Origin: Kofleriaceae bacterium
GTDB lineage: Bacteria > Myxococcota_A > Polyangia > Haliangiales > Haliangiaceae
Length of the DNA: 64,000 nt
Reading direction: 5' to 3'
Assembly (NCBI GenBank): GCA_018057825.1
Contig: JAGPCY010000020.1
Span: 41,634 to 105,633 of the forward strand
Below, piece by piece: positions 5,205 to 49,733 of the stretch (position 1 is the first letter of the stretch; each line of letters starts with the position of its first letter). The position numbers and the translations under genes were made by a program. The notes below the pieces were generated by a model. The model was not told the DNA's origin. It searched no databases and saw only the letters and a list, made by a program, of their open reading frames with translations.

Positions 5205-5443
5205 GAGGCGGAGACCGAGGCTGAGACCGAGGCGGAGGCCGAGACCGAGACCGAGACCGAGACCGAGACCGAGGCCGAGACCGAGACCGAGACCGAGACC
5301 GAGGCCGAGACCGAGACCGAGACCGAGACCGAGGCGGAGGCCGAGACCGAGACCGAGACCGAGGCGGAGGCCGAGACCGAGACCGAGACCGAGGCCGAGA
5401 CCGAGGCGGAGGCCGAGACCGAGACCGAACCCGAACCCGAACC
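5205..5443 (+). repeat. Intergenic degenerate hexanucleotide tandem array (GAGACC/GAGGCG/GAGGCC)n ending in (GAACCC)3; array 1 of 4
   Basis: About 40 direct hexamer units immediately after the stop of the upstream gene. Every frame reads as a low-complexity peptide (ETEA.., RPRS.., DRDR..). Confidence 0.95.
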
Positions 5444-5529
5444 GGCTGCTGCCAGGTCCTGTGAAGGCGCGCACAGCCGACGGCGACATGGGCTTCGCAA
5501 CCGGCGGTGGGCTGGCGTACCATCCGCTC

Positions 5530-6684
5530 ATGGGACCAAACGCCCTCGTCCGCGCCGGGCTGCTGCTTGGCCTCGCCGTCGCCGCGTGCGGCGACATCCC
5601 GGCCTCCACGATCGACGCCGCGCCCGACGCCGACCTGACCTGCTCGAGCGGGTGCGATCCCAACGCGACCTGCAACGCCGGTGCCTGTGTCTGCGATCCG
5701 GGCTACGAGGGACCGGGCCAGACCTGCACCGACGTCAACGAGTGCTCGACCGCCAACGGCGGGTGCCACGTCGACGCCGACTGCCTCAACCGGCCCGGGA
5801 CCCGCGAGTGTCGCTGCCGGCCCGGCTTCGTCGGCGACGGGCTGAGCTGCCTGCCGGTGTGGGAGCTCCAGGACTCGTATACGGGCGGCGAGTTTGCGGC
5901 GCCCTTCGACGGCTTCGCCGCCGCGGTCGGCACCTCGTTCTACTTCACGCGCGATGGCCAGAACGCCAGCACGCTCTTGTACAGCTACGACACGGTCAGC
6001 GGCGCCTTCGCCGTCAAGCCGGTGACCACGGTCGACGAGTTCTGCGCCTGCGGCTACGGCCAGGCGTTCGTCGGTGGCCCCAACCGACTGTGGATGTTCG
6101 GCAACGACGGCTGGTCCTACGACCCCGCTCTCGACCGCTGGGCGATCATCCCGGCCTACGCCAGCAGCGCGTCGCGCCGCGGCGAGGCGGCGGGCGCGAT
6201 CGATCCGCGCAACGGCCGGGTCTACCTGGTCGGCGGGCGGCCCAACGAGACCACCGCGAGCTGGGCCAACGGCTCGAACAACACCTACGGCGACGAGCCC
6301 GGGGTCTTGCCGGTCGGGGTCTCCGACGCCTCGGCGTGGCTGGTGCCCGAGATCGACACGTTGTTCGTCGCCGGCGGCCGCGGCACCGACGGCAACCAGC
6401 GGCGGGTCTACAGTCACGTCCTGGGCTCGTCGCTGTGGACCGAGCTGCCCCAGCTCCCGGCCGACGCCCAGCAGACCCGCGGCATGGGCACCCACCGGGG
6501 CCGGCTGTGGGTGGCCTCCGACGAGGGCGTCCACTTCTTCGACCTGGCGACCCGGGTGTGGACCTCGGTCGGCCTGCCGATCGGCTTCCAGCGCGCGGTC
6601 AGCGCCAACGGCGAGCTGTGGGCGATCACCAGCACGATCGGCAGCGGGCGCATCGACGTCTACAAGCTGGTCCGCACCGAGTAG
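5530..6684 (+). CDS. Secreted lipoprotein with calcium-binding EGF-like domain(s) and Kelch/beta-propeller-like region
   Basis: Signal plus lipobox (MGPNALVRAGLLLGLAVAACGD), a cbEGF signature (DVNECSTANGGCHVDADCLNRPGTRECRCRPGFVGDG), then repeated beta-strand-rich segments. Confidence 0.7.
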   Translation: MGPNALVRAGLLLGLAVAACGDIPASTIDAAPDADLTCSSGCDPNATCNAGACVCDPGYEGPGQTCTDVNECSTANGGCHVDADCLNRPGTRECRCRPGFVGDGLSCLPVWELQDSYTGGEFAAPFDGFAAAVGTSFYFTRDGQNASTLLYSYDTVSGAFAVKPVTTVDEFCACGYGQAFVGGPNRLWMFGNDGWSYDPALDRWAIIPAYASSASRRGEAAGAIDPRNGRVYLVGGRPNETTASWANGSNNTYGDEPGVLPVGVSDASAWLVPEIDTLFVAGGRGTDGNQRRVYSHVLGSSLWTELPQLPADAQQTRGMGTHRGRLWVASDEGVHFFDLATRVWTSVGLPIGFQRAVSANGELWAITSTIGSGRIDVYKLVRTE

Positions 6685-6716
6685 GCGTCGGCGGGGCCAT
6701 TGCGCGCCCTGCCGGG

Positions 6717-47949: not shown

Positions 47950-47982
47950 CGCCGCGCCGCCGCGCCGGATATCCTGCCGGCC

Positions 47983-49401
47983 ATGGTGCCACGCCTCGTC
48001 CTGGTCTTCCTCTCGCTCGCCGTCGCGCTGGGCACCGCCTCTGCCCAGCAGGGCGATCCGCTCCAGCGCGCCCAGGCCACCTTCGACGAGGCCCAGCGCA
48101 ACTACCAGGCCAAGAACTACGACCTCGCGGCCGAGGGCTTCAAGCGTTCGTACGAGGCGCGGCCGCTGCCGGTCGCGCTGTTCAACGCCGCCGCCGCCCA
48201 CCACATGAAGGGCAAGGGCTCGGGCGACGTCGCCGCCTACGAGCTGGCGGTGCAGTACTACCAGAAGTATCTCGACGCGGTGCCCGACGCCAAGGACCGT
48301 CCGGCGATCGAGAAGTCGATGGGCGTCCTGTCGGCCGAGATCGTGCGCATCAAGACCGCGGCGGCCGCCGCCGCCGGGGCCACGCCGCCGCCCGAGGCGA
48401 CCGCGCCGTCGGTCGAGGTCAACGCCCTCGGCGACGTCGCGACCCGCAGCCTGGTGGTGATCGAGACCGAGCCCCAGGGCGCCAACATCTACCTCGACGA
48501 CAAGAAGAACGGCGTCTTCGCGCAGACCCCGTGGTCGGGCTCCCTCGACGGTCAGCACCGCGTCTTGATCGAGAAGCGCGGCCACAAGGCCAAGGACGCC
48601 CTGGTCACCCCCGACCCCAATCGACTGGTGGTGCTGCAGGTGGTCCTGTCCGAGGAGGACTACCTCGGCTGGGTCGAGCTCAAGGCCAACGTCCCGGGGG
48701 CCCAGATCTTCGTCGACGACAAGGCCGCGGGCGCGATCGGGGTGACGCCGTACTCGGGCAACTTCAAGCCCGGCAAGCACCAGATCTGGATCGCCGCCGA
48801 TGGCTACGACGAGTTCACCCAGGAGATCGAGGTCGTGGCCGGTGAGACCCACGAGGTCGCGGCCAACCTGATCGGCGCGCCGGTCGGCTACCTGAACATC
48901 CAGGGCGCCAAGCTCGAGCGCGCCAAGGTCAAGGTCGACGGCAAGGTCCTGTGCGAGAAGGGCCCGTGCCGGGTCCCGGTGCGCCAGGGCAAGCGCACGA
49001 TCGTGATCTCGCGCGGCGGCTACAAGTCGTACCGAGCCAAGCTCGAGGTCCAAGCCAAGACCGAGCTGGTGATCACGCCGACCCTGGCGCCGACGCCGGG
49101 GCGCACCGACGCCGTCGTCGCCTACATCTTCGCCGGGCTCCTGGCCGGCGGCGCGACGGGCGCCTACCTCTACGCCGACAAGCTCGAGCCCGCCGACTCG
49201 CAGTACGACAACCGCAAGTACATCCGCTACGGCGCCTACGCCGGCTGGGGCCTGGCCGGCGTCGTCGGGCTGTCGGCGATCTACTACACCTTCCGCGACA
49301 AGGGCCCGCCGTCGCGCGGCACCGTCGACGTCCGCGCCCTCGCCTTGTCGCCGGTGGTCGGCCGCGAGTTCGCGGGCCTGTCGGTCGGCGGCGGATTCTA
49401 G
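47983..49401 (+). CDS. PEGA-domain envelope protein with N-terminal TPR-like region and C-terminal TM segment (paralog 1)
   Basis: Signal peptide. Repeated PEGA units (..ETEPQGANIYLDDKKNG.., ..ANVPGAQIFVDDKAAG.., ..GKVLCEKGPCRVPV..). C-terminal TM plus YYTFRDKG. Confidence 0.8.
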   Translation: MVPRLVLVFLSLAVALGTASAQQGDPLQRAQATFDEAQRNYQAKNYDLAAEGFKRSYEARPLPVALFNAAAAHHMKGKGSGDVAAYELAVQYYQKYLDAVPDAKDRPAIEKSMGVLSAEIVRIKTAAAAAAGATPPPEATAPSVEVNALGDVATRSLVVIETEPQGANIYLDDKKNGVFAQTPWSGSLDGQHRVLIEKRGHKAKDALVTPDPNRLVVLQVVLSEEDYLGWVELKANVPGAQIFVDDKAAGAIGVTPYSGNFKPGKHQIWIAADGYDEFTQEIEVVAGETHEVAANLIGAPVGYLNIQGAKLERAKVKVDGKVLCEKGPCRVPVRQGKRTIVISRGGYKSYRAKLEVQAKTELVITPTLAPTPGRTDAVVAYIFAGLLAGGATGAYLYADKLEPADSQYDNRKYIRYGAYAGWGLAGVVGLSAIYYTFRDKGPPSRGTVDVRALALSPVVGREFAGLSVGGGF

Positions 49402-49405
49402 GGGC

Positions 49406-49733
49406 GGTCTCGGTCTCGGCCTCGGTCTCGGCCTCGGTCTCGGCCTCGGTCTCGGCCTCGGTCTCGGTCTCGGCCTCGGCCTCGGCCTCGGCCTCGGACT
49501 CGGACTCGGACTCGGACTCGGCCTCGGTCTCGGTCTCGGTCTCGGTCTCGTCTCGGTCTCGGGTTCGGTCTCGGGTTCGGACTCGGACTCGGACTCGGAC
49601 TCGGACTCGGACCTCGGACTCGGTCACGGTCTCGGTCTCGGGTTCCCGTTCCCGTTCCGGTTCCCGTTCCGGTTCCCGTTCCCGATCCCGTTCCCGTCCC
49701 CGTTCCCGTTCCCGTTCCCGTTCCCGTTCCCGC
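49406..49733 (-). repeat. Intergenic composite hexanucleotide tandem array: (GGTCTC/GGCCTC)n, (GGACTC)n, (GTTCCC)n, i.e. the reverse complement of the GAGRCS family; array 4 of 4
   Basis: It starts immediately after the stop of PEGA paralog 1 and ends about 165 bp before paralog 2. It is inverted relative to arrays 1-3. Confidence 0.95.

Follow-up and report, generated by a model that had tools for sequence, protein, structure and literature searches.

Results

Four arrays of one hexamer family fill gaps between genes

The stretch of DNA analysed here, referred to below as the window, comprises 64,000 nt (73.6% GC) of contig JAGPCY010000020.1 from the Kofleriaceae bacterium assembly GCA_018057825.1, and holds four tandem arrays of a degenerate hexanucleotide, each lying in the gap between two genes read from the plus strand. 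Period-6 arrays were located in it with Tandem Repeats Finder (TRF), which returned 36 copies of GAGACC at 5211-5428 (array 1), ~29 copies at 12797-12970 (array 2), 37 copies at 25452-25671 (array 3) and, for array 4, 39.5 copies of the reverse complement CGGTCT at 49405-49641, directly followed by 15 copies of GTTCCC at 49642-49732. The period was 6 throughout, with 29-40 copies and 84-90% matches, which is the head-to-tail organization of short units that characterizes variable-number tandem repeats (VNTRs). Each array spans 176-329 bp and ~29-55 units, principally GAGACC, GAGGCC and GAGGCG with their variants, and together the four account for 976 nt, or 1.5% of the window [Table 1]. Three successive units, written as (GAGRCS)3, yielded 102 matches in the window compared to none in 100 shuffles. 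A census of the units revealed the arrays to be degenerate, with 5-11 unit types each and variation falling mainly at positions 4 and 6 of the hexamer; the plus strand of arrays 1-3 consists of 28-29% A, 26-32% C and 40-44% G, with T near 0. A first-pass annotation of this DNA, made from the sequence alone, had assigned all four arrays to one motif family, an assignment that our analysis supports.

The same annotation had described array 4 as a reverse-complement array separating two paralogs with PEGA domains. Pfam matches uphold the paralogs and the array is indeed inverted; it is not a simple array, however, but a composite of two blocks, designated 4a and 4b. The 1-nt deletion that had been noted in array 2 is present, and indels are not confined to that array, two of them being found in array 4 as well [Table 1]. 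The (GGGAAC)15 tract of array 4b matches the G3-N3 G-quadruplex consensus, on the template strand of the PEGA genes. A CRISPR array was ruled out, as annotated, on the ground that the repeat units abut without unique spacers between them. An assembly artefact was likewise rejected, the arrays recurring in NCBI metagenome-assembled genomes (MAGs) and in several JGI assemblies: the window is matched with 100% DNA identity and identical proteins by contigs JAHZTT010000054.1 of MAG GCA_020049675.1 and JAHZTR010000084.1 of MAG GCA_020054605.1, and a Logan contig that starts inside array 2 matches it exactly from there on. In NCBI, the RseP and PEGA proteins are assigned to a Kofleriaceae bacterium.

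Gene positions were obtained by mapping to the window the calls made on identical or near-identical public contigs, complemented with a frame plot of GC content at third codon positions (GC3). Array 1 lies 11 nt past the stop at 5194 and 86 nt ahead of ATG 5530; array 2 lies 1-2 nt past the stop at 12795, the last base of which is overlapped by its first unit, and 74 nt ahead of the rseP start at 13047. Array 3 is found 66 nt past the stop at 25374 and 56 nt ahead of the murA start at 25729, and array 4 lies 3-4 nt past the stop at 49401 and 164 nt ahead of the start at 49898. These distances agree with the placement between co-directional genes given earlier, and confirm that the four arrays are real and intergenic. 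The true start of the EGF-domain gene is likely to be ATG 5530, which precedes a lipoprotein-type signal peptide, rather than the GTG favored by gene callers.

Table 1 Arrays, flanking genes and a conserved spacer block in the 64,000-nt window.
Feature	Coordinates	Strand	Description and evidence
Array 1	5205..5443	+	~39 hexamers: 24 GAGACC, 7 GAGGCC, 5 GAGGCG, 1 GAGGCT, then GAACCC x2, GAACCG
Array 2	12797..12972	+	~29 hexamers; 1-nt deletion near 12906
Array 3	25441..25672	+	lead-in GAGGAG, then ~37 hexamers
Array 4a	49405..49641	-	(GAGACC/GAGGCC/GAGTCC/GAACCC)n; one -1 and one +1 indel
Array 4b	49642..49733	-	(GGGAAC)15, equal to GTTCCC on the plus strand
Gene 5' of array 1	4136..5194	+	352 aa, no Pfam match; gene call on identical contig L101, GC3 plot
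Gene 3' of array 1	5461..6684	+	EGF-domain protein; gene callers choose GTG 5461
Hemerythrin-like gene, 5' of array 2	12307..12795	+	pairing with rseP kept in L242 and L243
rseP (site-2 protease)	13047..14684	+	545 aa
CBM_6/CBM_35 protein gene, 5' of array 3	22585..25374	+	gene call
murA	25729..26985	+	418 aa; GGAG 6 nt 5' of ATG
PEGA-domain gene, 5' of array 4	47983..49401	+	Pfam; 472 aa
TPR/PEGA paralog, 3' of array 4	49898..51391	+	Pfam
Non-repeat spacer block CCCTCGACC..CGTGGTAAC	13001..13031	+	array 2 upstream of block; spacers compared by eye

The arrays are non-coding

Six-frame translation left all six reading frames open through the arrays, because the array units can form no stop codon in any frame. 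Openness is thus a property of the motif, and the open reading frames (ORFs) that mechanically cross the arrays (e.g. 5025..7685, 12795..14684 and 25089..27608) are therefore no evidence for a gene. The proposal that the arrays are translated, either as additions to the neighboring proteins or as low-complexity peptides of acidic (E-T/A)n or basic (R-P)n type, may nonetheless draw on these open frames, on the existence of a GAG-NNS frame with 100% GC at third positions in a unit that varies mainly at positions 4 and 6, and on other taxa: several Streptomyces loci have an array inside a GC3-supported ORF, and in Leisingera, Acinetobacter and Salinivibrio, where the flanks read by eye resemble acidic low-complexity protein, the hexamer apparently encodes (ET)n.

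In the window, in contrast, the acidic frame (GAG-ACC and the like) differs from the frame of every adjacent gene. At arrays 1 and 3 it extends hundreds of codons over the next gene, in a frame other than that of the gene, and it is broken by the 1-nt deletion in array 2 and by the -1 and +1 indels in array 4. In JGI strains, the sole possible start of the acidic ORF over array 2 (GTG 12795) reads GCG, and the frame stops at a TGA that is absent from the window. The best RseP and MurA homologs listed (mostly 545-565 aa and 417-427 aa, respectively) carry no N-terminal extension, in agreement with the annotated beginning of both proteins after the arrays. Array 4 variants of other strains hold GATCCC and GAACCC units, which would introduce GAT and GAA, two codons presumed to be rare at 74% GC. 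Gene callers, finally, placed no gene over the arrays on ~25 public contigs, two exceptions aside (an 84-aa call in contig L108 and a 252-aa call in contig L237), both of which look spurious. No in-frame gene with a start and a stop, and no ORF kept across strains, was found to run through the arrays. Based on the six-frame translation, GC3 plots, ORF starts and stops in other strains, and RseP and MurA homolog lengths, translation of the arrays was rejected, and we consider it highly improbable; the arrays are non-coding as well as intergenic, as annotated. The idea that array 2 might be the remnant C-terminal tail of the upstream gene was dismissed too, in that the sister orthologs stop at the equivalent position with no such tail, and the acidic frame is out of register with that of the gene.

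Two further tandem repeats of the window are located inside ORFs and appear to be coding low-complexity sequence: one at 39993-40087 (periods 9/18/45), within plus-strand ORF 39889..42213, and one at 45697-45743 (periods 6/18), within minus-strand ORF 44636..46879, where it reads as (GD)n.

Array length and unit content differ between strains

Strains of the same species were represented by JGI metagenome contigs, the flanks of which are 98.5-99.8% identical to the window; contig L108, with a flank only 97.8% identical on one side, is likely error-prone. Array 1 of contig L236 is exactly 13 units shorter than that of the window, with identical edges. The gap holding array 2, 251 nt in the window, measures 222, 224, 228, 247 or 251 nt across strains, and that holding array 4 varies from 496 to 520 nt. 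In array 4, the stop-proximal block has changed from (GAGACC/GAGGCC)n in the window to (GATCCC/GAACCC/GACCCC)n in JGI strains, and the copy number of the GGGAAC unit of array 4b differs between strains. Despite this block swap, the 472-aa PEGA protein encoded 5' of array 4 is 100% identical across strains, and the 165 nt of non-repeat DNA that precede the downstream PEGA start, which include GGGATATCTT at 49829-49839, are 99.4-100% identical across eight strain contigs. The GA dinucleotide keeps its register across array 4 blocks of differing units. In four JGI contigs array 3 differed only at its 5' edge, and its gap measured 275 nt in one contig compared to 354-358 nt. Some 1-nt indels vary between similar assemblies, and three contigs of array 2 have none; indels of this kind may be sequencing errors. 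The arrays are thus polymorphic between strains, copy number and block content differing at arrays 1, 2 and 4, in line with the hypermutable, VNTR-like behavior that the first-pass annotation had anticipated. The in-register, whole-unit nature of the differences leads us to infer that replication slippage or recombination generates them.

At positions 1-6900 of contig L237, the genes called upstream of a DUF6209 gene differ from those of the window, and a 231-nt array of the same family is found at 1154-1384, which suggests either a variable region or a frameshift-ridden assembly.

Sister lineages lack arrays at the three sites compared

The sites of arrays 2, 3 and 4 were compared to those of sister lineages. 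Two relatives, with RseP proteins 93% (L242) and 85% (L243) identical to that of the window, have kept the hemerythrin-like and rseP gene pair that flanks array 2, together with the TsaD-family and DUF465 genes that follow it. No hexamer repeat occurs in the hemerythrin-rseP spacers of these two relatives, which measure 49 and 54 nt compared to 251 nt in the window. The block CCCTCGACC..CGTGGTAAC is common to all three spacers, and in the window array 2 and 33 nt of unique sequence lie between the stop codon and this conserved block. As a spacer element in its own right, the block (13001-13031, CCCTCGACCGCCGCCGACGATCCGTGGTAAC) lies 16-46 nt 5' of the rseP start, is conserved in L242 and L243 and possibly serves as a promoter or leader.

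At the array 3 site, four of five relatives (L111-L114; MurA 90-94% identical) have an RNB ribonuclease gene followed by murA after 69-83 nt, and the fifth (L115; MurA 85% identical) has a different upstream neighbor; array 3 is absent from all five. The CBM_6/CBM_35 gene and array 3, which in the window lineage stand between the RNB gene and murA, are both missing from L111-L114. The CBM_6/CBM_35 gene is a lineage-specific insertion with array 3 at its 3' end.

At the array 4 site, the spacer of L244 (PEGA pair 72% identical) consists of 292 nt of unique sequence without hexamer repeat, and L245 carries an extra 296-aa gene between the two PEGA paralogs. All that the window, L244 and L245 share at this site is a GGGATATYT motif near the downstream start. 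In the window this motif takes the form GGGATATCTTC (49829-49839), ~60 nt 5' of the second PEGA gene, and it probably belongs to that gene's own promoter or leader. In L245, 3-4 tandem copies of a ~45-50-nt unit were seen by eye at 6425-7000, in the spacer that follows the first PEGA gene.

Over ~105 kb from five sister-lineage loci, the sole period-6 array was a 63-nt (CGGGCA)8 tract. It directly follows the TAG of a coproporphyrinogen oxidase gene, with ~8 copies in L112 (7748-7810) and ~3 in L111 (7780-7800), two states that likely represent an early stage of array growth. A different motif, CGACGACC(C/A)GCG, forms degenerate repeats at 7478-7859 of L113, in the spacer between its M16 peptidase and RNB genes. 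With the three sites compared being empty in the sister lineages examined, the arrays of the window appear to be lineage-specific.

The presence of one family at four unlinked spacers within 45 kb, with none there in the sisters, raises the prospect of an actively dispersed repeat that seeds itself at new sites, for instance by template switching during break repair or through a reverse-transcriptase-like activity. The 33 nt of extra unique sequence that came with array 2, the association of array 3 with a lineage-specific gene insertion, and the block replacement in array 4, which resembles an exchange with other arrays, would all fit such a process. Inspection of the four junctions, however, revealed no conserved flank, terminal repeat or target duplication; the same holds for a shared flank of the kind expected from miniature inverted-repeat transposable elements, of which none was seen by eye in these four copies from a single genome. 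No mobile-element gene was noticed near the arrays in the Pfam lists, although no search aimed at such genes was made, and the nascent array of the sister lineage grew from local sequence. On balance, we view active dispersal as unlikely.

Wider distribution and orientation of the arrays

A scan for (GAGRCS)8 in one genome per species returned at least 95 stretches. Many were in MAGs of Myxococcota, including at least 14 array-bearing contigs in a single MAG (PRO3) and others in Kofleriaceae, Nannocystaceae and Haliangiales; the matches listed also came from Rhodobacteraceae, Streptomyces, Planctomycetota and further groups. In a metagenome scan, ~25 of 80 loci among the matches listed originated from one sample, and viral contigs held 107 stretches of the hexamer. 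The possibility that such arrays are a generic slippage product spread uniformly over high-GC genomes, which the first-pass annotation had left standing, fails for the non-coding form: sisters with 83-94% identical MurA or RseP are array-free at the same sites, and in non-myxobacterial isolates the hexamer appears mostly to encode (ET)n. Our search of the literature found no description of GAGACC arrays, or of hexamer repeats in myxobacteria or Myxococcota.

Several of these loci stood out on their own account. Contig L192 (Ga0310345_10000051) consists, over ~3.5 kb (2250-5900), almost entirely of hexamer and 12-mer arrays (GAGTCC, GATCCG, GCAGCGGAGGCG and others), interrupted every ~1.2 kb by a short conserved segment with AWCTGCGTSGACMMCGAGAACG, and contains no convincing gene inside; the 20-nt motif that recurs between its arrays is absent near those of the window. 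Contigs L005, L033 and L036 of a MAG labelled Metamycoplasmataceae (45-54% GC) carry kilobase-long arrays of GGAGGC and (AC)n types, which look out of place for this taxon and may derive from contaminating, possibly eukaryotic, DNA. Arrays were very often found at contig ends (L001, L003, L013, L102 and many other loci); such repeats thus seem to interrupt short-read assembly, and MAGs will under-represent the number of arrays.

Context was scored for 66 arrays on contigs of at least 68% GC, using a crude GC3-based gene caller that is unreliable below ~65% GC, such that the following counts are approximate. A stop codon lay within 100 nt of ~25 of the 66 arrays, and ~4 looked like an ORF running into the array. 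The gaps occupied were co-directional, convergent (L042, L119) or divergent (L118, L205, L027), and at two of the divergent ones (L118 and L205) N-termini with signal peptides face the array. With the gene behind whose stop the array lies as reference, the A-containing strand was oriented either way in a ratio of 11:9. A function that depends on the direction of the neighboring genes was therefore not borne out by these arrays, which show no bias of context or orientation. Of 31 further arrays on contigs from elsewhere that carry arrays, 17 were GAG-first and 25 were GA-first.

Independence of orientation and context would fit a role at the level of DNA, in which a lineage-specific protein would bind the GA-phased hexamer and the arrays would provide it with platforms of many sites, for example in nucleoid organization or insulation. 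The invariant period-6 GA that persists over different unit types, and the tendency of one motif family to prevail within a genome, point in the same direction. Yet no candidate binding protein was identified, close relatives are array-free at the same sites, copy number is unconstrained, and the exchange of blocks for other unit types between strains would destroy a specific site. A binding or architectural function of this type is, in our estimation, very unlikely.

RNA structure and sequence signals

Predicted RNA folding was compared to a background of 320 windows of 200 nt, the minimum free energy (MFE) of which was -0.49 +/- 0.06 kcal/mol per nt. The sense strand of arrays 1-3 gave -0.21 to -0.23 kcal/mol per nt and the GTTCCC block (array 4b) gave -0.07, values less stable than those of all 320 background windows; array 4a, in contrast, was near the background mean at -0.48. 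No Rfam match at the gathering score and no tRNA were found in the whole window. The arrays, 4a excepted, are thus unusually unstructured. The suggestion of a structured 3'-untranslated RNA is rejected on these grounds, and the earlier statement that the arrays lack hairpins of the REP/BIME type holds. Simple scans limited to 4900-13300, around arrays 1 and 2, detected neither promoter-like nor terminator-like sites. Start trinucleotides (ATG/GTG/TTG) and stop trinucleotides each number 0-1 per array over both strands, compared to background values of 12.6 and 5.3 per 240 nt, respectively.

Intrinsic terminators with a U-tract are expected to be rare in a genome of this composition. The arrays might act there as functional spacers in RNA, a structure-free, C-containing tract after the stop codon loading Rho or insulating adjacent units. 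The low stability of arrays 1-3 and 4b, the start of many arrays 0-50 nt past a stop codon and the lack of any intrinsic-terminator-like site around arrays 1 and 2 are consistent with such a spacer, as is the sense strand of array 4, the only one with more C than G (131 vs 99). Measured against known rut sites, the similarity is partial: long unstructured RNA is a trait of arrays 1-3 and 4b but not of 4a; on the sense strand of arrays 1-3 G exceeds C (42% vs 30%), the opposite of rut sites; and, far from lying consistently oriented 3' of genes, the arrays divide into 11 A-type and 9 T-type and occur in divergent promoter gaps too. Furthermore, sisters do with spacers of 49-69 nt at the same sites, and array length is not conserved between strains. 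We regard a functional RNA spacer as unlikely.

Discussion

The arrays described here are probably recent, lineage-specific, hypervariable non-coding hexanucleotide microsatellites, i.e. VNTR loci, of this Kofleriaceae lineage. They would occupy the dispensable part of a spacer, mostly right after the upstream stop codon, and would expand, contract or acquire other unit types, 6 nt or several units at a time, through replication slippage and unequal or ectopic recombination. Loops of ~6 nt are poorly recognized by MutS-type mismatch repair, and the six-base loops formed by these units would escape it. A length of 180-330 bp would be tolerated since the motif is inert, one strand being free of T and the array offering, as a result, almost no starts or stops, no AT-rich promoter-like hexamers and no hairpins. 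The net effect would be a longer spacer (from ~50 to 220-250 nt before rseP) devoid of sequence-specific information. In this scheme, the mechanism, the escape from mismatch repair and the neutrality of the arrays are what we infer. The lack of orientation bias, the occupation of all gap types, the absence from sisters and the free variation in length all argue against a function at the RNA level or one that is site-specific.

Similar VNTR loci with 6-9 bp units are used for typing by multiple-locus VNTR analysis (MLVA) in GC-rich bacteria such as Xanthomonas. MLVA loci of Ralstonia solanacearum have units of 6-9 nt in 2-14 copies (PMC12366337). Like bacterial VNTR loci in general, the arrays consist of short head-to-tail units, often intergenic and strain-variable in copy number, with no known sequence-specific function. 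They differ from those of Ralstonia, where the motif of each locus is unrelated to the others (PMC12366337), in their 29-55 copies, in the grouping of four loci of one GAG-first family within 45 kb and in the exchange of whole unit blocks between strains. The claim of an uncharacterized repeat class was, in this respect, overstated: the arrays behave as bacterial VNTRs or microsatellites and belong to that known kind, of which they are unusual members in size, density and shared motif.

Other repeat systems offer partial parallels. Contingency-locus simple sequence repeats (SSRs) of Haemophilus and Neisseria occur within ORFs or separate promoter elements from each other, and act as on/off switches of genes. 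The arrays share with them a hypermutable copy number, probably the result of slippage; unlike them, they lie after stops, upstream of conserved non-repeat spacer blocks, and none was found to interrupt an ORF or to separate core promoter elements. With a unit of 6 nt, moreover, a change in copy number cannot shift the reading frame. REP/BIME elements, likewise intergenic, often just past stops and present in many copies per genome, are imperfect palindromes that form hairpins, unlike arrays 1-3 and the GTTCCC block, which are unstructured, and the main block of array 4, which is near background. The short tandemly repeated repetitive (STRR) heptamer arrays of heterocystous cyanobacteria comprise a few short-unit families at many intergenic sites and have no known function. 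A passage of one paper gives STRR repeats as a tool for fingerprinting (PMC5088731). The arrays resemble them as a tandem short-unit motif family found at many intergenic sites of one lineage and usable as a strain marker, and differ in having a unit of 6 rather than 7 nt, in phylum and base composition and in the absence of any sequence relationship. The tandem repeats of Borgs, found with Methanoperedens, have perfect units, with examples of 18-21 nt, and each sequence is unique; about half fall in ORFs and give rise there to disordered stretches of protein (PMC9879509). Both kinds are fast-evolving, genome-specific, absent from relatives and enriched in A on one strand (28-29% here, with T near 0) (PMC9879509), and both occupy intergenic sites, the first unit often in or at the end of a gene; the present arrays, by contrast, are built from degenerate hexamers of a single family, do not code for protein and sit on a bacterial chromosome. 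In a survey of short tandem repeats over the tree of life, hexanucleotide units were noted as over-represented in prokaryotes, chiefly within coding sequence (PMC12699852).

Several observations weigh against an origin as ordinary microsatellites. All four arrays of the window, and most of those tallied above on contigs elsewhere, belong to one GAG-first or GA-first family, when independent local births should give unrelated motifs, as the (CGGGCA)n of the sister lineage did. The GA dinucleotide stays in register across blocks of differing units, which could reflect a constraint. That many arrays begin so close behind a stop codon is explained only indirectly by a neutral model, and array 3 is nearly unchanged between strains, meaning that hypervariability is not universal. 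GAG-first dominance, the GA register and the starts at stop codons would be compatible with dispersal between loci, for instance by template switching into arrays already present, or with selective filtering in favor of inert motifs. In a more far-reaching version, the GA-phased, T-free hexamer arrays of several Myxococcota lineages would form a genuine genome-wide family, actively seeded beside stops and in spacers by template switching or a dedicated process, and kept as structure-free, signal-free insulation of transcription and translation units in very GC-rich genomes. While we deem this unlikely, it would make the arrays a bacterial counterpart of the Borg tandem repeats or of the cyanobacterial STRR, with a definable function; were the arrays to insulate or terminate transcription, they would also be relevant to the way in which genomes without classical terminators mark the boundaries of their genes.

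If the simpler identification as VNTR loci is correct, the value of the arrays is practical rather than conceptual. As markers already at hand, they would tell apart with high resolution the strains of an uncultured Kofleriaceae population that recurs in many metagenomes. The arrays also frequently cause contig breaks in MAG assemblies and, because all six frames stay open through them, give rise to spurious ORFs and N-terminal extensions in GC-rich genomes. The arrays further represent a natural example of fast microsatellite birth and turnover in a bacterial lineage, and raise the question of why one GAG-first family dominates within array-rich genomes.

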